Below are positions 4,375 to 19,165 of a stretch of DNA of 42,026 nt, in pieces. The notes below the pieces were generated by a model. It searched no databases. It was not told the DNA's origin and worked only from the letters and a program-made list of their open reading frames with translations. Source of the DNA: Balneolales bacterium (GTDB lineage: Bacteria; Bacteroidota; Rhodothermia; Balneolales; DATFMH01); contig DATFNI010000181.1 in assembly GCA_035266485.1 (NCBI GenBank), positions 1-42,026 on the forward strand. Direction: 5' to 3'. The translations under genes and the position numbers were made by a program. Position 1 is the stretch's first letter; the number at the start of each line of letters is the position of its first letter.

Positions 4375-5604
4375 TTACTGAAGGTGTTCTGCGGCCATCT
4401 TGAACACCTTTTGAAAGGTTTCGTCAACTTCTTTTTCTATATTTTTTTGTTGAGGAAACGGGGTTACGTGAGAATAGTCGAATGGGAAGTCCAATACCTG
4501 CACATTAGCTGGTAAATCTCTGAAATCACCCTTCAGAGTGTTCAATACTTCCCCGGGTGGTATAACCTCGTCTTTGGTCAGCGCCACGGCAGCGATTCGC
4601 GATCCGATCTCTCTGAAGCGATCTTCTCGAATCTTTTTATGGCGGTGACTGCTCAGCATAGACCGAAAATAAATGCCCGACCGGTGGCCCTCATTGAAAT
4701 AGTGGTTTAGCCGTTCGTTTAACTTGCATTCATTATCGAGATGTTCGATGAAAAAGGAATACAGGGCAATATTCGCCTCGCTATCAAGGATGTAGCGCGA
4801 CACAGGATACATACGGTCGAGTGTCGGTCCACCACAAAAGATGAACAACCTGGAATCGGAGAACAGGTTGTCTGTATTGGTCATTAACAGGATTTCAGAG
4901 AGGAATGAACCAATAGAGTAGGCAAAGAAATCGATATCAGCAGTTTTAGATATATGAGGATGGTCACCGGACCTGATACTCCTGACAAGCTGTAAGATGT
5001 CTGAATAGGTCTGTCTGCCCGACCAGAAGAAGCGTTGAGGTATCTTATGTATGCGTGTGCTGATCGCTGCATTTGCAAAGGATGCCTCAGCAATGGCAGG
5101 ATATTTTTTGCGCCTCTCAGACGAAACAAGATTCATTTTCCTGGGATGGCTCCAACCGGCAGGGACCCGGTTCATATGAAAAGCGATGGGAAAGAGAATC
5201 ACTGTTTTATTTGTTAATTCCACCAATCGGTAAGCCCAGCTTAAATACTTTTCCCAATGCTTTTCATTGAGCCCATGAAACAGCAAGATAACGTGCGAAC
5301 TGAGCTGGGTATCTTTAGGAAGGAAAACAGAATATCTAAATGTACGATTACTATCAATGTTACAGTCAGCAGCGTTGAGGTTGTAATCGGGTACATCTGA
5401 AGTCTCCCTAATTATCGGATAAGTTTCCCGGAACGTACGATGATGTCGTTTACATTGGTAAAACTGCGAACCGGGCAAAACATCAGCATAGTGAGATATG
5501 AATGTGTAATTGCGTATCTCAATTGAACTCTCTGGTATGGTGATGCGATCAGCACTCTGATTGAAACAATCCTTCAACCGATTATGTAAGGAGAGGTATG
5601 TCAT
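4375..5604 (-). CDS. Uncharacterised alpha/beta-hydrolase-fold protein
   Basis: 409 aa. The VILLFHGLNE segment resembles an oxyanion region. FAYSIGSF looks like a nucleophile elbow of the (A/G)xSxG type. No closer assignment is possible by eye. Confidence 0.6.
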   Translation of the reverse strand: MTYLSLHNRLKDCFNQSADRITIPESSIEIRNYTFISHYADVLPGSQFYQCKRHHRTFRETYPIIRETSDVPDYNLNAADCNIDSNRTFRYSVFLPKDTQLSSHVILLFHGLNEKHWEKYLSWAYRLVELTNKTVILFPIAFHMNRVPAGWSHPRKMNLVSSERRKKYPAIAEASFANAAISTRIHKIPQRFFWSGRQTYSDILQLVRSIRSGDHPHISKTADIDFFAYSIGSFLSEILLMTNTDNLFSDSRLFIFCGGPTLDRMYPVSRYILDSEANIALYSFFIEHLDNECKLNERLNHYFNEGHRSGIYFRSMLSSHRHKKIREDRFREIGSRIAAVALTKDEVIPPGEVLNTLKGDFRDLPANVQVLDFPFDYSHVTPFPQQKNIEKEVDETFQKVFKMAAEHLQ

Positions 5605-10092: not shown

Positions 10093-10122
10093 ACCCTGTC
10101 AGGGTCCTGACCCTGACAGGGT
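10093..10122. repeat. Perfect 14-bp-arm palindrome in the leuA-leuC spacer
   Basis: ACCCTGTCAGGGTC (10093-10106), CT, GACCCTGACAGGGT (10109-10122). No adjacent U-tract on the operon strand. Confidence 0.6.
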
Positions 10123-10151: not shown

Positions 10152-11348
10152 TTAAGCTGTTCGCGATTGTACGTGTTCGTCAACGCGTCCTTTATTCTGG
10201 TAAACGTGCGGGATCAGCGTAAGAATATCACTGTCCGGAACAATCTTCTTTTCATCGGCCAAAGCGGTGAATTTCCGGTACACGTCATCCAGTGCTTCCC
10301 CGTTTAACGGACAGCCAAGTGCTTCGAGCTTCTGGCGTAATGCAAAACGTCCGGAATGCTTGCCAAGTACAATCTTATTTGCCGAGATGCCCACCGATTG
10401 CGGTGTCATGATCTCGTAAGTCATCGGATTATTGAGGACCCCATGCTGGTGGATACCTGCTTCGTGAGCGAATGCGTTTTCTCCGACGATTGCCTTATTG
10501 GGTTGTACGGCCTTACCGGTTATCTCCGTCAACAGATTGCTCGATGCAAAAATCTCTTCTGATTTCACGTCTGTGTATTCCTCAAAATCAGTCTGCCGTG
10601 TCTTGATAGCCATCACGATCTCTTCAAGAGAGGCGTTACCCGCCCGTTCGCCTATTCCGTTGATGGTACATTCGATCTGACGGGCACCATTCCGAATGGC
10701 AGAGAGGGAATTGGCAACTGCCAGTCCCAGGTCATTGTGGCAATGCACACTAATAATCGCTTTATCGATATTGGGTACATTTTCTCTGATCTTCCTGATC
10801 AGATCGCCGTATTCCCATGGAAGGGCATAGCCAACCGTATCCGGAACATTGATGATAGTTGCACCGGCATCGATGACAGCCGTGAAAATCTCATACAGAA
10901 ACTCCGGATCACTCCGTGAAGCATCTTCGGCCGAGAACTCAACCGTATCGTAGAAGCTGCGTGCCAATTCCACAGCACAAACGGCCGATTCAAGTACCTC
11001 CTTGCGTGTCATCTTCAACTTATACTGCATATGGATATCGGAGGTAGCGATGAAGGTGTGTATCCGCGGTTTGGCAGCATATTGTAAAGCATCTGCAGCG
11101 CGCTTGATGTCGATGGATTTCGTTCGACATAGCGCAGCTACCTGGCTGTTCTTTATATGCTTCCCGACTTCCTTCACGGTTTTGTAGTCACCTTCCGAAG
11201 CGATTGGAAAACCGGCTTCTATAACATCAACTTGTAATTGTTCCAACTGCAGGGCCATACGAATTTTTTCCTGCTCGTTCATGCTGTAACCGGGCGATTG
11301 TTCGCCATCACGCAAGGTGGTATCAAAAATGCTAATTCGGTTTTCCAT
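10152..11348 (-). CDS. leuA: 2-isopropylmalate synthase, short form without the C-terminal regulatory domain
   Basis: 398 aa with [26 protein letters not shown] and [10 protein letters not shown]. The protein ends shortly after the GKHSGR subdomain. Confidence 0.8.
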
Positions 11349-11461: not shown

Positions 11462-13084
11462 TCAGTTAGGTTCCATAGGAGTTTTAGCATGGGTAGTCCT
11501 CTTTTCTTCTTTTAGTTTTTGATTCTTATACAGATAATAACTGAAACTGTCTGACAAAGCCTGCCAGCTGGCATCGATGATATTGGGTGAAACGCCGATG
11601 GTTCCCCAGGAGTCTTCTTTGTTACTTGAATCGATCAATACCCGTACGTTGGCTCCGGTGCCTTCTTTTTCATTGAGCACGCGGACCTTATAGTCGGTCA
11701 GATGCATCTCTTTTAACTCAGGATAGAACTGATGAAGTGCTTTTCGCATGGCGTAGTCGAGGGCGTGAACCGGTCCGGAGCCTTCGGCTGCGCAGTGTTC
11801 CTTGCGTCCGTTAACGAACAGCCGAATGGTAGCCTCAGAGCGTGATTCATCTTCGCCATTCTTCTCCACAATCACACGGAAGCCCTCAAGCTGAAAGTAA
11901 TCTTTCCACGGCTCGGTCATCTTCTTGACAAGCATCTCGAAGGATGCTTCCGCAGCTTCGAACTGATACCCGTTATTCTCCATCTCCTTGAGCTTGTTGA
12001 CGATTTTCGGGATATCGTGTTTGTTGCCATCCAGTTGCATGCCGAGCTCATCCGATTTATAGAATACGTTGCTTTTACCGGATAAGTCAGATACCAACAC
12101 CCGTCGGCGGTTTCCAAGCTGTTCAGGTTCAAGATGTTCATAGGTGCGTGCGTTTTTCATAACGGCACTCACGTGAACCCCACCCTTATGAGCAAAAGCA
12201 CTGCTTCCTACAAAGGGGAGTTTGTTATCGGGGCTCAGGTTAGCCACCTCGCTCACAAAGCGGGAAAGGCTGGTGAGTCTCTTTAACTGTTCATCCGGGA
12301 CACACTGATAGTTTTGTTTGAGCTGCAGATTTGGGATAATAGAACACAGATTAGTGTTACCGCAGCGTTCACCATAACCATTTATGGTTCCCTGTACGTG
12401 GACACATCCCTGTTGAATGGCCGCAAGAGAATTGGCAACTGCCAGTTCACAGTCGTTGTGTGCGTGGATGCCAAGAGGCGTGTCGGTACGTTTTTTTACT
12501 TCAGCCACAATTGCTGATACTTCATGGGGGAGGGTACCTCCATTAGTATCACAAAGAACCAGAACATCTGCACCAGCCTCCTGAGCGGCAAGCAATGTTT
12601 GAATAGCATAAGAGGAATTATCCTTGTAGCCATCGAAGAAATGCTCGGCATCATAGATCACTTCTTTGCCGTGTTTCTTCAGGTATGCAACAGATTGATA
12701 AATAATCTTCAGGTTTTCTTCAGGCGTGATATTCAGGGCGTCTTCCACATGCAAAATCCAGGTTTTGCCAAAAATGGAAGTAGCTGGTGTCTCGGCATCG
12801 ACAAGGGCCTGCAGATTGCTGTCCTCCGCAGGCTCCTTGCCGGCTCGGTGTGTGCTGCCGAAAGCGACGATCTTTGCATTGCGGAACTTTTTGTTTCTGG
12901 CCTTTTCAAAAAACGCCATGTCTTTTGGATTTGAGCCCGGCCATCCCCCTTCAATGTAGTGGATGCCAAACTCGTCCAGACGTTCCGCTATGCGAATTTT
13001 ATCATCAGCTGAGAAAGAAACCTTTTCACCCTGTGTGCCGTCACGCAGGGTGGTATCGAAGATTTTTATCAATTGTTTATCCAT
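11462..13084 (-). CDS. cimA: Citramalate synthase type (long IPMS/CimA family member with regulatory domain)
   Basis: 540 aa. The motifs [44 protein letters not shown] and LCDTNGG match my recollection of the Geobacter/Leptospira-type CimA signature. Confidence 0.75.
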
Positions 13085-14146: not shown

Positions 14147-14692
14147 TCAGGTATCACCGGTATACTCGCGTTTCAGGGCAACACTACCGGTCCGTGCAAC
14201 TTCCACGAGTCCGAACTGACGCAGTAACCCAATGGCTGCGTCGATCTTATCTCCACTGCCGGTAACTTCGATCGTCAGTTTATCCGTACTGATATCGATA
14301 ATCTTCGCACGAAATACGTTGACAATCTGCATGATTTCAGAACGCTTAGCCGGTGGGGCTGACACTTTGACCAATGCCAATTCTCTGGAGATAAACGGTT
14401 CAAAGGTCAGGTCTTTCACTTTCACTACGTCGATGACGTTGTGAAGCTGCTTGGTGATCTGCTCTACGATCTGTTCATCACCCTGTGTGGTGATCGTTAT
14501 CCGGGCAAGACCGGGTTCCTGTCCCTGGCCGAAGCTGATGCTTTCGATATCAAAACCCCGGCCGCTGAACATCCCTATGATGCGGGATAACGCATTCAGG
14601 TTATGAGCAACAAGGACAGAAATTGTATGTTTGGGAAGTTGGGTACCTTTCTTATCGGTACCGTTGAGATATTCAACTTTTGAAGGGGTCAT
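14147..14692 (-). CDS. ilvN: Acetolactate synthase small (regulatory) subunit
   Basis: 181 aa with an ACT-domain start HTISVLVAHNLNALSRIIGMFSGRGFDIESI. Its start overlaps the ilvB stop (ATGA). Confidence 0.9.
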   Translation of the reverse strand: MTPSKVEYLNGTDKKGTQLPKHTISVLVAHNLNALSRIIGMFSGRGFDIESISFGQGQEPGLARITITTQGDEQIVEQITKQLHNVIDVVKVKDLTFEPFISRELALVKVSAPPAKRSEIMQIVNVFRAKIIDISTDKLTIEVTGSGDKIDAAIGLLRQFGLVEVARTGSVALKREYTGDT

Positions 14693-16452
14693 TTTGGCTC
14701 CTCAACCATTTCATTTATGGCAGCACCGGCCGGTACCATCGGATAACAGTTGGCTTCTTCGACAACCTGGAAATCCATGACCACGGGCCGGTCGTTAATT
14801 TTCATTGCTTCTTCGAGTACAGATTTCATCTCTTCGGGATTGGTAGCGCGTAAACCGACGGCGCCATAACTTTCGGCGAGCTTCACGAAATCCGGATTTC
14901 CGCCTCGCAGGTCGGAATGCGAATAACGTTTGCCAAAGAAGAGTTCCTGCCACTGCCGTACCATTCCCAGGTATCCGTTGTTCATGATGGCAATCTTGAC
15001 GGGGATTTTATTTTCAACGCAGGTAGAAAGCTCATAGGCTGTCATCTGGAATCCGCCGTCACCGGTGATGCAGACAACCTGCCGGTCGGGACAGGCAACG
15101 GCCGCCCCCATGGCTGCAGGGAATCCATACCCCATCGTACCAAGACCGCCGGAAGTGATGAACGAACGGGGATGATTATATTTATACAGTTGCGCCGCCC
15201 ACATCTGGTGCTGACCAACATCAGTAACAACAATAGCCTCTCCTTTCGTTATTTCTGAAATGGCCTCTATCATGTGTTGTGGCATGATCCGGTCTTTCAG
15301 TTTAGGAGAGGAAAGGGGATGATCTTTTTTCCACTGGTGTATCGTATTCCACCACTCGTCGACTTCCGGTTTGTTGGTGTGTTTGTCGAGTTCCGGAAGA
15401 ACGCTTTTTACATGACCAACAATCGGGATCTCCACGGGCACGTTTTTGGCGATGCAGGAAGGATCGATATCGATGTGGATTTTACGTGAGTGGGGAGAGA
15501 ATCCATCGATGCGTCCGGTAACCCGATCGTCGAAACGGGCACCAACGGCCAGTAACACATCGCACTCTGTCATGGCCATATTGGCATACCATGTGCCGTG
15601 CATACCGAGCATGCCCAGCGACTGGGGTTTACCTTCAGGATAACCGCCGAGCCCCATGAGGGTAGTGGTTACTGGAATGTTTGTGCGTTCCGCAAAATCA
15701 GTAAGTTCTTTCCATGCTTCTCCCCGGATGACACCGCCGCCGGCATAAATCAAAGGTTTCTTTGCATTGCTGAGCAGTTCGGCAGCTTTGACGATCTGGC
15801 TGTAATGTCCGCGCGTGACAGGCCGGTAGCTGGGGATATTGATATTCCGCTCACCGGTATAGTAGCCTTTGGACATCACCATATTCTTTGGCAGGTCGAT
15901 CAGCACTGGACCCGGCTTGCCGCTTGTCGCAATATGAAACGCCTCACGGATAACATGCTCGAGTTGATTAGCATCCTTGACCAGGTAGCTGTGTTTGGTG
16001 ATTGGCCGGGTAATTCCAACGATGTCTGCTTCCTGGAAAGCATCGTTGCCAATCAGACTCGTAGCCACCTGACCGGTGAAAACGACCATCGGAATGGAGT
16101 CGATAGCTGCAGTAGCAATACCCGTGACGGTGTTTGTTCCGCCCGGACCTGATGTTACAAGTACCACACCGGGTTTACCCGTTGCGCGGGCATATCCATC
16201 GGCGGCGTGGGCACCTGCCTGTTCGTGCCGGATGAGTATATGCCTTAACTTTGGGTTCTTATATAGTGTATCGTATATGGGGAGTACCGCTCCACCCGGA
16301 TAACCAAATACGGTATCCACACCAAGGTCAAGTAATGTCTCGACCAGAATTTCAGCTCCGGTAAGTTCTTGTGCCTGGTTCGGTTTAGAAACCAGTGACG
16401 GCTTCGAGCCGTTAAAGTTTCTGTCCTTGATTTGCGTTGCTTCGTTGTTCAT
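14689..16452 (-). CDS. ilvB: Acetolactate synthase large subunit
   Basis: ThDP-enzyme motifs are present: GYPGGAVLPIYD, GPGGTNTVTG, GLGTMGYGFPAAMGA, GDGGFQM. I chose the ATG at 16452 because GAGG sits 5 nt upstream. The track start at 16479 is a GTG. Confidence 0.9.
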   Translation of the reverse strand: MNNEATQIKDRNFNGSKPSLVSKPNQAQELTGAEILVETLLDLGVDTVFGYPGGAVLPIYDTLYKNPKLRHILIRHEQAGAHAADGYARATGKPGVVLVTSGPGGTNTVTGIATAAIDSIPMVVFTGQVATSLIGNDAFQEADIVGITRPITKHSYLVKDANQLEHVIREAFHIATSGKPGPVLIDLPKNMVMSKGYYTGERNINIPSYRPVTRGHYSQIVKAAELLSNAKKPLIYAGGGVIRGEAWKELTDFAERTNIPVTTTLMGLGGYPEGKPQSLGMLGMHGTWYANMAMTECDVLLAVGARFDDRVTGRIDGFSPHSRKIHIDIDPSCIAKNVPVEIPIVGHVKSVLPELDKHTNKPEVDEWWNTIHQWKKDHPLSSPKLKDRIMPQHMIEAISEITKGEAIVVTDVGQHQMWAAQLYKYNHPRSFITSGGLGTMGYGFPAAMGAAVACPDRQVVCITGDGGFQMTAYELSTCVENKIPVKIAIMNNGYLGMVRQWQELFFGKRYSHSDLRGGNPDFVKLAESYGAVGLRATNPEEMKSVLEEAMKINDRPVVMDFQVVEEANCYPMVPAGAAINEMVEEPK

Positions 16453-16453
16453 T

Positions 16454-16602
16454 ATGACCTCGTTGGTTGCGGTATACACTTTTCTCGCCAGAGGTCATTC
16501 TTTAAATCGGTAAGTAAGGCTTGGAAATTTTCAGATTACTGTAGAATAACCTCTGGCAATATGTTAACGATTAATTAGTAGTAGAATTAGGCCAGAGATT
16601 AT
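16454..16602 (-). promoter_or_regulatory. Candidate translational attenuator of ilvB (four-segment switch A/B/C/D)
   Basis: On the minus-strand RNA the segments are A AUAAUCUCUGGC (16602-16591), B GCCAGAGGUUAUUCU (16557-16543), C AGAAUGACCUCUGGC (16501-16487) and D GAGGUCAU (16461-16454, the ilvB SD). Pairings are A:B 12 bp, B:C 15 bp and C:D 8 bp, and they are mutually exclusive. Confidence 0.5.
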
Positions 16603-16794
16603 ACCTACATTAATCAATAGGACTAGACTTAGTACGGGTAAAGTAAGCCCTACAGAAGGCAGGTAGAGTACGGTAGCGGAAATCAGAGAGATCACGAACA
16701 AAACAGCTTCAGGATATATGAAACCGGATTGTTGGGTATCGACTGGCATTACTGCCACTGTATGTGAGTTAGTAATAGTCAACTTTTGATCCAT
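16564..16794 (-). CDS. 76-aa ORF upstream of ilvB: either a leader-peptide-like ORF or a small two-TM protein
   Basis: 16 of the last 23 codons are Leu/Ile/Val, ending GLILLLINR*. Seven of the eight Leu codons in this tail are CTA, and none of the seven Leu codons earlier in the ORF is CTA. No SD. Confidence 0.4.
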   Translation of the reverse strand: MDQKLTITNSHTVAVMPVDTQQSGFIYPEAVLFVISLISATVLYLPSVGLTLPVLSLVLLINVGIISGLILLLINR

Positions 16795-17455
16795 AACTGA
16801 TTACAAGCTTCTTGGAATGTATATAACCGAATTTCCTGAGTCAAGTTTATTTTCATCTTTTTTTAAAAAAATTACATCAAATACTATTGGTTTTTAGAAA
16901 TGATTACTTTGTGATCTAATGGTTTTCCTTTTTTATAAGTACTTATAAAAATAATACTTATCTCATTTATTAGGGTCTAAGAGGCTATTCCTGGATTGGT
17001 TTGACCGCCTGGCTGGTGCTATTCCTCTGGTTGCAATTGCTATAAATCGAAAACGAACGCCTTTTCAAATAATTATACGGTTTTGTTCCAATCAGATTGT
17101 TGTTAGTTCATGATGTTTTACAAATGATATCAAATGATGTTCTTTAATGATTTTATATAATATTTCGATGTAAATTAAATATGAAATGGCTTCCAAAATT
17201 TTATGTTTTAGATTATATGGTCGATTAACCTAAAAATATTAATATAAAGACTTGCTGGTTTCTAAAAATAAAAGGATCTGTAGCAAAACGGGATCGATCT
17301 GTGTCCTTTAATATTTTTTGTAATACTTTCCATTAATCGTCTTACACATATATATTGTAAAACTTGTTTTTCCCATATATCGTCCACTAGTTTGGGTGAG
17401 ATGTGATTTTTCCCTTAACAGTTATTAGTAACAAAATTCAGACACAGAGTCGGTT

Positions 17456-19165
17456 ATGAGTTCCAAATTGAATAAATACAGCTCACGGTTAACACAGCAA
17501 CAATCACAGGTCGGTTCCAAAGCCATGCTTTATGGCGTGGGTCTGTCCGATGATGATATGAACAAAGCCCAGGTAGGGATTGCCAGTACGGGTTGGGAGG
17601 GAAATACCTGTAATATGCACCTCAACGGGTTTGCAGAACATGTGAAAGAGAGTGTGTATCAGTCCGGCCTGATTGGGTTTATCTTTCACACGATTGGGGT
17701 GAGCGACGGAATATCGATGGGGACCCAGGGGATGAAGTATTCGCTGCCTTCCCGGGATATCATTGCCGACTCCATTGAAACGGTCATGCGTGCTCAGTGG
17801 TATGATGGTAATATTTCCATTGCAGGATGCGACAAGAATATGCCGGGCTCTGTCATGGCGATGGCACGTTTCAACCGGCCATCGATCATGATCTACGGTG
17901 GTACCATTCGTCCGGGAAATCTGAATGGACAGAAGCTGGATATCGTCTCGGCTTTTGAATCCTATGGTCAATTTCTTTCTAAAGAAATTGATGATAACCA
18001 GTTACTGGACGTCTTGCACCATGCATGTCCGGGTGCTGGTGCCTGCGGTGGTATGTACACCGCTAATACCATGGCTGCTGCGATCGAGACCCTGGGGATG
18101 AGCCTGCCATACAGTTCATCGATTCCGGCGACGCACAGCAGGAAGATTGAGGAATGTCACCAGGCGGGCAAAGCCATTCTCACGCTGCTCGAACGCGACA
18201 TCAAGCCACGTGATATCATGACTAAACAAGCGTTTGAGAATGCCGTTGCTGTTGCTATCGCATTGGGTGGATCTACAAACGCCGTGCTGCATTTACTGGC
18301 TATGGCTTATACTGCGGACGTGGATTTTACGATCGACGACTTCCAGGAAATTAGCGCCCGCACGCCATACCTGGCCGATCTCAAACCCAGCGGGAAGTAT
18401 GTGATGGAAGATCTCTACAATGTCGGAGGCGTTCCGGCTGTACAGAAACTCCTGTTGAAAGAAGGTCTTATTGATGGTTCCTGTATAACAGTTACCGGCA
18501 AGACGCTGGAAGAAAACATAGCCGATCTGCCCGATCTGCTGGAGGGACAATCCATCGTTGCTCCCGTCTCCAATCCGATTAAAAAGAAAGGTCACATCGA
18601 AATAATGTATGGAAATCTTTCTCCAGAAGGAGCTGTGGCAAAGATCACAGGTAAGGAGGGAGAACGTTTCAGCGGCCCGGCCAAAGTGTTTGACAGCGAA
18701 GAAGACAGTCTGACTGCCATCCAGAACGGAGTGGTTAAGCCCGGTGATGTAGTAGTCATTCGCTATGAAGGACCAAAGGGGGGGCCGGGTATGCGCGAGA
18801 TGCTGTCCATTACCGCAGCTATTATGGGTGCCGGACTCGGAAAAACCGTTGCCCTGATTACCGACGGCCGCTTCTCTGGCGGCAGCCACGGTTTTGTGAT
18901 CGGTCACGTAACACCGGAAGCCCAGGTTGGTGGTCCTATTGCCCTGATACAAGATGGTGACCAGATCACAATCGATGCGGTTTCCCGCAAGATGACTCTG
19001 GATATATCCGAAGAGGAATTTGAAAAACGCAGGAAGTCATGGAAACAGCCGGAGCTTAGAGTCAAGAGTGGCTCCCTTTATAAATATGCCGTACTGGTAT
19101 CGTCGGCATCGGAAGGTTGTGTAACGGATAAAATCGAACGGGTTCCGGTAAACAGTAAACAGTAA
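17456..19165 (+). CDS. ilvD: Dihydroxy-acid dehydratase
   Basis: 569 aa with [35 protein letters not shown] and [10 protein letters not shown]. Confidence 0.95.

Follow-up and report, generated by a model that had tools for sequence, protein, structure and literature searches.

A branched-chain amino acid leader-peptide element ahead of the ilv-leu operon of Balneolales, probably a ribosome-mediated attenuator acting on the ilvB start region

Analysis of a stretch of 42,026 nucleotides (nt) from a Balneolales bacterium (GenBank assembly GCA_035266485.1, contig DATFNI010000181.1, positions 1 to 42,026; hereafter the window) revealed a leader open reading frame (ORF) on the minus strand between the divergent gene ilvD (17456-19165, plus strand) and ilvB (16452-14689, minus strand), the first gene of an operon for branched-chain amino acid (BCAA) synthesis. 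The evidence indicates that the ORF is translated and that it serves for sensing rather than for making an ordinary protein, and the element represents a real, conserved and apparently undescribed family of BCAA-sensing leader-peptide attenuators of Balneolales. Judged from sequence comparison and computed folding, it is probably a ribosome-mediated attenuator of the ilv-leu operon that would sense charged tRNA-Leu(UAG) and tRNA-Ile and unmask the ilvB start when the translating ribosome stalls.

Regarding the coding content of the leader, the ORF (16794 to 16564; translation MDQKLTITNSHTVAVMPVDTQQSGFIYPEAVLFVISLISATVLYLPSVGLTLPVLSLVLLINVGIISGLILLLINR, followed by the stop codon) specifies a very hydrophobic peptide, 47% of which is leucine, isoleucine or valine. 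These three residues take up 16 of the last 23 codons, and in this tail seven of the eight Leu codons are CTA, a codon used for none of the seven leucines that precede it. The run CTA-ATT-CTA-CTA-CTA-ATT (16590-16573) lies ahead of the stop codon, inside the loop of the A:B helix described below. The position of the ORF and the tail counts reproduce those of the original prediction, made from the letters of this DNA alone, which had also turned on CTA being rare, and this was borne out: no other Leu codon is used as seldom in the window (42 of the 955 leucines encoded by 28 long ORFs, 4.4%), and across 17 loci it makes up 0-8% of the Leu codons in flanking genes and 50-100% of those in the last 20 leader codons. 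The probability of at least seven CTA codons in eight is 2.5e-9 given the codon usage of the window and 1.9e-5 given the leader ORF's own base composition. When lineages are compared, an unchanged residue keeps its codon in 71-100% of cases in the leader tail versus 34-48% in ilvB. The codons in the A:B loop are always an AUU/CUA run, often with one AAC added; their order is permuted between lineages while codon identity is kept, and the last sense codon of the leader varies freely (CGU, AGA, CGC, CAA, AGC or AGU). The permuted order of AUU and CUA and the free last codon are the signature of control codons rather than of RNA pairing or peptide function.

The start of the ORF had been placed at ATG 16794, giving 76 codons. 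This ATG is present in the subgroup of the window (g1) and confined to it, and the family-wide start is the in-frame TTG at 16782-16780, from which the leader has 72 codons. It is the sole start codon common to all 22 full-length relatives; in two of them (L107 and L108) a stop codon lies immediately 5' of the common TTG, and many other members have ATG in its place (MIRQASHT..., MNSQTPHN..., MSTAKTHT...). Counted from the common start, the leader has 70-85 codons in every lineage. The earlier reservation that 76 codons are long for a leader peptide falls away, since this length range is a conserved property of the family. The leader frame contains no stop codon, as against 7-13 and 2-7 stops in the other two frames, and the probability of such an open frame is 0.008-0.03 per lineage. 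A shorter, 17-codon leader beginning at an internal TTG (codon 60) was considered and rejected, since the upstream TTG or ATG and the entire frame are conserved and the internal TTG is not.

Four RNA segments, named A to D (Table 1), surround the control codons and extend to the ilvB start, and their sequences and coordinates proved exact as originally given. The A:B core consists of 12 bp with one G-U pair, as had been proposed, but the full helix is longer, at about 23 bp: GAUUA.UGUAGG.AUAAUCUCUGGC (16615-16591) pairs with GCCAGAGGUUAU-UCUACA.UAAUC (16557-16534), and the resulting helix is as stable as B:C. The B:C helix of 15 bp with one G-U pair was reproduced and reaches 17 bp in the minimum free energy structure; C:D, formed by AUGACCUC and GAGGUCAU, was likewise reproduced as 8 perfect pairs. 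All energies reported here are nearest-neighbour predictions. The A:B hairpin has an energy of -26.4 kcal/mol (z-score -5.4), the B:C hairpin -27.6 kcal/mol (z -5.9) and the fold of the C:D region -12.1 kcal/mol (z -2.1). As a consequence of the extension of A:B to about 23 bp, the two alternative states, A:B plus C:D on the one hand and B:C on the other, have equal ensemble energies in the window (-42.8 and -42.7 kcal/mol). The motif of segment B occurs in the locus only as A, B and C, apart from one chance-level match with one mismatch, which rules out a dispersed or REP (repetitive extragenic palindromic)-like repeat. The stop codon precedes B by 6 nt in g1 or by 8 nt (24 distinct sequences), and by 7-8 nt in lineages L112-L114; the control codons sit within A and 0-24 nt after it, and B begins at least 19 nt past the last CTA or ATT codon.

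These features suggest the following mechanism. Transcription would start from a conserved sigma-70-like promoter, after which a ribosome would translate the 72-76-codon leader. When charged tRNA-Leu(UAG) or tRNA-Ile is short, the ribosome would stall in the CUA/AUU run and cover segment A; B, at least 19 nt downstream, would be free to form the 17-bp helix with C, leaving D, with its Shine-Dalgarno (SD) sequence GAGG and the AUG, single-stranded, and ilvB would be translated (the ON state). When supply is adequate, the ribosome would run to the TAA, 6 nt ahead of B, and cover the 5' end of B; on its release the A:B helix of about 23 bp would form, making C available for an 8-bp helix with D that would stack on a small conserved hairpin and occlude the start (the OFF state).

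Relatives of the leader were retrieved in several ways. A genome-collection search with ilvB returned mostly distant relatives and one close locus, L001, from a Rhodohalobacter metagenome-assembled genome (MAG), which is the nearest genome match for ilvB at 74% identity. The leader-equivalent ORF of this locus ends in ILISGILILNLIIR before its stop codon, and the same arrangement of TCTGGC, GCCAGAGGTTA and CCTCTGGCG lies ahead of its ilvB. A first profile search of 5.8 billion proteins gave 11 homologues and a second, broader profile 28 clusters; contigs were fetched for 12 of the protein-profile matches, and scanning metagenomes with a DNA pattern gave 15 further true loci and 2 G+C-rich chance hits. 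In total about 30 protein clusters and 31 loci were obtained, with 24 distinct sequences and 3 divergent ones. They fall into at least five subgroups, namely g1, g2 (Rhodohalobacter-like), g3, g4 and single lineages such as L101, L097 and L112-L114. At every locus with context, including all 12 fetched contigs, the ORF lies directly upstream of ilvB, and in all cases where the contig includes an identified gene on the far side of the ORF, that gene is a divergent ilvD.

This distribution bears on the caveat, already raised with the original prediction, that the ORF might be a genuine small two-helix membrane protein with a function of its own, the hairpins then being ordinary structures of mRNA stability or processing. 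The peptide does have two hydrophobic stretches of transmembrane length; its length of 70-85 residues, its start position and an N-terminal motif M-x4-5-[ST]-H-[TSN] are conserved, and a member is labelled a membrane protein in one source. Membrane-protein homologues at loci unrelated to ilv were looked for and none was found, all homologues with context lying only upstream of ilvB, and the ORF has no match in Pfam. In its middle part the peptide shows just 25-31% identity from one subgroup to another. Its tail has Leu and Ile in an order that differs between lineages, and it is kept at synonymous sites with the rarest Leu codon, the opposite of what is expected for an expressed membrane protein. 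We consider a membrane protein instead of a leader very improbable; a dual role as leader and membrane protein is compatible with these observations. Regarding annotation, P0030, a peptide of 76 residues in the same 90% cluster as the leader peptide of the window, is named 'predicted membrane-bound spermidine synthase' by one public source, a name that evidently arose in error when a hydrophobic peptide was annotated automatically.

The conservation and covariation of the segments, which the original prediction needed, were examined by counting pairs on gap-free concatenated segments of 14 distinct sequences, as MAFFT had misplaced a gap in segment A. For A:B 98.5% of cells are paired, with 2 compensatory pairs, and for B:C 86% are paired, with 4 compensatory pairs; slid controls gave 30-56%. 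In g1, position 12 of B is a U that faces an A in both segment A and segment C; in the other sequences it is a G, facing C in segment A and either C or U in segment C. Such a joint change of one position with both of its partners is expected of mutually exclusive helices. In L113, which was retrieved by its protein and not by the pattern, segment B contains GCCAGGGG, an A-to-G change that keeps G-U pairs with both A and C. Thirteen distinct loci came from the DNA pattern, which fixed the cores of B and C; core invariance in those 13 loci is therefore by construction, and only positions outside the cores, together with the protein-retrieved loci, are informative on covariation.

Regarding the output step, the energy needed to open positions -14 to +3 of ilvB in the window is 9.7 kcal/mol in the A:B state and 2.6 kcal/mol in the B:C state, a difference of 7.1 kcal/mol; with longer context the values are 8.6 and 3.7 kcal/mol. 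The comparison of the two folds that had been proposed with the original prediction thus agrees with it, and it extends to relatives: in 11 of 13 lineage representatives, the window included, the start region is harder to open in the A:B state by 3-13 kcal/mol (12.9 in L001, 11.5 in L090, 9.4 in L093, 8.9 in L101, 7.0 in L097, 5.3 in L114, 4.4 in L113, 3.5 in both L111 and L112, and 3.2 in L103). When the sequence downstream of C was shuffled the difference was about 0 +/- 2.3, and in 7 lineages none of 40 shuffles reached the observed value. The C:D pairing is rebuilt from different sequences by subgroup. It is formed by AUGACCUC:GAGGUCAU in g1, by GACCUC(U):(G)GAGGUC in L113, by UUUUgaCCUC with GAGGAAAA in L101 and, in g2, by a long A/U-rich helix across the AUG that is closed by CUC:GAG. 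Relative to shuffled start regions, the C:D duplex has z-scores of -5.2 (g1), -3.8 (L101), -2.2 to -2.5 (g2) and -1.6 (L097).

The element had been described as sequestering an SD sequence. The computed occlusion of the start region in the A:B state upholds this, but an SD-like sequence is found within 20 nt of the start in only about 6 of 29 window genes, ilvB and ilvN among them, and most initiation in this organism appears to proceed without SD pairing, as in Bacteroidota, so that start-region sequestering is the better description; with few SD sequences in the organism, occlusion of the whole start region is the relevant quantity.

The same sensor might have a different output, namely Rho-dependent termination or polarity instead of translation initiation, and both outputs could coexist. 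In this version the A:B state would leave the 80-110 nt between the stop codon and ilvB free of ribosomes and largely unstructured for Rho, and B:C or the stalled ribosome would block loading. The leader peptides tnaC, mgtL and speFL act through Rho, the present leader has no intrinsic terminator, and g3 and g4 have a weak C:D or none, despite full conservation of A:B and B:C in both; the C/G ratio is 1.2-1.6 in the spacer from stop codon to AUG (82-111 nt) and 1.25-3.0 in the B-C loop. This excess of C is modest, however, the spacer is short for a rut site, and a Rho output leaves unexplained the strong and sequence-diverse C:D pairing of g1, g2, L101, L097 and L113. Rho as the output is a possibility we take seriously while holding it doubtful, and of the original wording 'translational rather than terminator-based' the second half stands, there being no terminator, whereas translation versus Rho is a matter on which the analysis can offer only an inferred preference.

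Regarding terminators, no U-tract follows any of the A-D helices in the window, as had been noticed before, nor in any relative: the sequence 3' of B:C is GGCGAGAAAAGUG and that 3' of C:D is AAUGAAC. The genome does use canonical terminators, such as the 13-bp stem with U8 at 19542-19512 (minus strand) in the window, which makes their absence from the leader meaningful. Were one of the helices an intrinsic terminator, the element would be a classical transcription attenuator, sharing the four-segment layout and the control-codon run of leuL, ilvL and ivbL, but it lacks the U-tract and, with B:C as the terminator, starvation would turn the operon off; such an attenuator is extremely improbable. 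Terminator-like hits near the locus are unrelated to A-D, and include a weak hairpin inside the leader ORF (16726-16704, minus strand) of 8 pairs followed by UUUUGUUCGU. The subgroup of the window keeps this hairpin with one change, of a U-G to a U-A pair; the other subgroups showed no such hairpin, and it probably arises incidentally from the hydrophobic codons. Upstream of the leader ORF, the TTGAC and TATA elements of the promoter-like site (Table 1) align and are conserved in all subgroups. Two other candidate promoter readings were rejected: a second promoter TGACC...TATAC downstream of B has too short a spacing and is missing from g2, and a sigma-54-like reading of TGGCGGG lacks the -12 GC. 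Scans for tRNA and transfer-messenger RNA found none.

Beyond segments A-D, the leader RNA carries two further elements. Directly 3' of C, the block GGCG(R)G(N)AAAGU(R)(Y)AUA(Y)CC is near-invariant across subgroups, and in folds of the A:B state it forms a stem of 3-6 bp with a conserved A-rich loop, nested inside C:D. At the other end, a long hairpin termed P0, in which the TTG start codon is itself paired, tends to form in roughly the first 100 nt of the leader ORF; it is seen in the window, L001, L090, L097, L108 and L111 and pairs UUGAA with UUCAA in g2 and UUGACU-AUUACU with AGUAAU-AGUCGA in the window. The 5' 116 nt have a z-score of -2.5 in the window and of -4.7 to +0.1 among representatives, with 7 of 12 below -2, and P0 is retained in the alignment fold with almost no covariation. 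The evidence for P0 is suggestive, and such a hairpin could limit initiation on the leader to a co-transcriptional window.

These elements leave room for two other readings of the leader. It might be primarily a protein- or ligand-binding RNA, with the A-rich loop after C or the 5' hairpin as the sensor and the ORF secondary; the near-invariant block and a conserved CACAUA region, which an attenuator does not explain, would fit such a role. A non-translated element would have no need of a conserved open frame, a common start codon and a run of rare codons, and Rfam gave no match at any threshold, with nothing at the gathering score for the window and 7 related loci and noise alone at E<=10, and we regard a binding element as highly improbable. 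Alternatively, and still unlikely, the leader could do more than carry control codons: its 5' features might limit it to one transcription-coupled 'pioneer' ribosome, or the two-helix nascent chain might engage the membrane-insertion machinery. The pioneer-ribosome variant could draw jointly on the conservation of the start codon, on the [ST]-H-[TSN] motif near the N-terminus and on the 5' hairpin that pairs the start codon; if membrane engagement were true, ilv-leu expression would integrate the charging of BCAA tRNAs with co-translational membrane targeting, as a hybrid of MifM-like and leuL-like control in a phylum where SD-led initiation is largely missing.

The intergenic region between ilvD and the leader (16845-17455 in the window) is about 600 nt long in the subgroup of the window and about 130 nt long in the Rhodohalobacter-like group. 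Within the longer version, conserved blocks extend to L084, the most distant member, an example being that around 17230-17340 with the direct repeat ACAGATC; the region gave no match in Rfam.

Several observations weigh against the attenuator as proposed here, with charged tRNA-Leu(UAG) and tRNA-Ile as the signal and the ilvB start as the target. Covariation rests on few independent events, mainly between the subgroup of the window and the rest. Two of the 13 lineage representatives, L108 and L095, are without state-dependent occlusion of the start, and in g3 and g4 the C:D duplex is no better than shuffles. A ribosome at the stop codon would cover just the first few bases of B, and stalls at the many Leu, Ile and Val codons far upstream of A would not yield the ON state. 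The length of 70-85 codons is far above that of any classical leader; classical attenuators have short peptides of about 14-35 codons, a size that none of the lineages shows. Two features are not accounted for by the model, namely the conserved block that follows C and the conserved N-terminal motif together with the hairpin that may form at the 5' end. Ribosome stalling, the kinetic order of folding and the output, with translation initiation rather than, or besides, Rho-dependent termination, are all computed or inferred. As far as computation reaches, the original interpretation is nevertheless supported, and none of the computational checks named with it spoke against it.

Compared with known systems, the element combines the layout of the trp and leu attenuators with a predicted ermC-type read-out. 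It resembles the enterobacterial leaders of leu, ilvBN and ilvGMEDA (leuL, ivbL and ilvL) in the run of codons for the end-product amino acids of the operon, in the arrangement of segments as 1:2, 2:3 and 3:4, and in the stop codon just ahead of segment 2. The enterobacterial leu leader also uses the rare CUA, as the original prediction had noted, and replacement of CUA by CUG in the Salmonella leu leader lowers sensitivity (PMC1183508). In Balneolales the choice of the rare CUA appears to have been made independently, and its recurrence in the two groups supports the choice of the first-collapsing isoacceptor as a general design rule. Unlike the enterobacterial leaders, the Balneolales leader has a 3:4 helix that is not a terminator and has no U-tract, and it is 70-85 codons long with a TTG start in many members, whereas the enterobacterial leaders have 28-32 codons; there is no sequence or Rfam relationship, and Balneolales belong to a different phylum with few SD sequences.

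MifM and SecM are upstream ORFs of 95-170 amino acids at which a stalled ribosome melts a helix hiding a downstream SD sequence, MifM being membrane-targeted. They sense membrane insertion or secretion by an arrest peptide, whereas the downstream genes and the rare-codon run of the Balneolales leader point to the supply of BCAA tRNAs as the signal, and its peptide showed no arrest motif. The leaders ahead of ilvB in Corynebacterium and Staphylococcus aureus act as short-peptide transcription attenuators. According to the titles and abstracts concerned, a BCAA-codon-rich leader ORF lies upstream of ilvB both in Corynebacterium, as an ilvBNC uORF or attenuator regulating transcription (PMC10272879; PMC11857589), and in S. 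aureus, as a leucine-rich attenuator peptide (PMC5794164), and no sequence similarity to the Balneolales leader was seen. In its predicted read-out, a start site freed by the alternative 2:3 pairing, the element is like the leader ORFs of ermC and cat and the Cys leader ORFs of mycobacteria; the mycobacterial study reports cysteine-responsive leader ORFs that unmask a sequestered ribosome-binding site in response to amino acid supply (bioRxiv 10.1101/834739). The signal differs, being an antibiotic-dependent arrest peptide or Cys codons in those systems and Leu and Ile, via CUA and AUU, in Balneolales. The Balneolales leader is also much longer, hydrophobic and unrelated in sequence, and the additional, equally stable A:B helix makes its switch bistable in the window.

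To our knowledge, leader-peptide attenuation of amino acid operons is known almost only from Proteobacteria, Firmicutes and Actinobacteria, with a read-out that is almost always an intrinsic terminator. The element would bring such attenuation to Balneolales, which are Bacteroidota-related and have few SD sequences, and it departs from the textbook in a read-out most likely on the start region of the first gene, in three times the usual length, in its TTG start and in its independent use of CUA. One survey of attenuators reportedly predicts such elements in Bacteroidetes. Literature searches, whose reach did not extend to that survey (Lopatovskaya et al., 2010), gave no description of this leader family. 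As the family is not in Rfam and the ORF is unannotated or called a hypothetical or membrane protein, its description would improve annotation. The element is also a potential engineering part, as a compact, bistable translational switch responsive to amino acids.

Table 1. Features of the leader region and the first operon gene, with positions in the window.
Feature	Position	Strand	Details
Promoter-like site of the leader transcript	16816-16844	minus	TTGACT, 17 nt, TACATT; consensus scan
Leader ORF	16564-16794	minus	76 codons from ATG 16794; 72 from TTG 16782-16780; stop TAA 16566-16564
Possible 5' hairpin P0	16738-16783	minus	Would pair the TTG start codon with a downstream ORF segment
Control-codon region	16567-16632	minus	7 CTA (rare Leu) and the Ile codons ATT/ATA/ATC, mostly ATT, in and around segment A
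Segment A (segment 1)	16591-16615	minus	GAUUAAUGUAGGUAUAAUCUCUGGC; partner B; core 16602-16591
Segment B (segment 2)	16534-16559	minus	UUGCCAGAGGUUAUUCUACAGUAAUC; partner A or C; core 16557-16543
Segment C (segment 3)	16485-16501	minus	AGAAUGACCUCUGGCGA; pairs B (17 bp) or, via AUGACCUC, D; core 16501-16487
Post-C block	16469-16489	minus	GGCGAGAAAAGUGUAUACCGC; directly 3' of C
Segment D (segment 4)	16450-16461	minus	GAGGUCAU, SD and spacer of ilvB (16461-16454), plus ATG 16452-16450
ilvB, acetolactate synthase large subunit	14689-16452	minus	NCBIfam TIGR00118, 844 bits; first gene of the operon

Regarding the operon itself, the nine genes originally proposed downstream of the leader are all named by NCBIfam: ilvB, ilvN, ilvC, cimA (citramalate synthase), leuA, leuC, leuD, leuB and ilvE. 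The 2-isopropylmalate synthase LeuA (10152-11348, minus strand, 398 amino acids) is without the C-terminal allosteric and dimerisation domain PF08502, which the adjacent citramalate synthase (11462-13084, minus strand, 540 amino acids) carries. Feedback of leucine on LeuA may be missing, and with a LeuA that has no allosteric domain, a larger share of the regulation may fall to control of expression by leucine. Within the operon, the short stretch separating leuA from leuC contains a near-perfect palindrome of 30 nt (10093-10122) with a 13-bp stem, ACCCTGTCAGGGT CCTG ACCCTGACAGGGT, which could be an intra-operon processing or stability hairpin. The next gene on the same strand after ilvE (4375-5604, minus strand) encodes a DUF6051 protein (PF19519, 480 bits) without an NCBIfam name.

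Outside Balneolales, no BCAA leader was found at most other loci of Rhodothermales, Ignavibacteria and Calditrichia. Comparable BCAA-rich upstream ORFs were looked for at 13 loci of Rhodothermales, Ignavibacteria, Calditrichia and Chlorobi, among which L022 and L032 have possible ones and L015 alone is convincing. At L015, in a Rhodothermus sp. MAG, an unrelated upstream ORF (2579-2779) ends in RVLPLLLLSLLVLLISLIG before its stop codon about 140 nt ahead of ilvB, with leucine mostly encoded by CTT, and is followed by the mutually complementary segments GGTCAATCCC and GGGGGATTGACCCCGG (2780-2870); from its sequence, this looks like an independent BCAA leader in a sister order.

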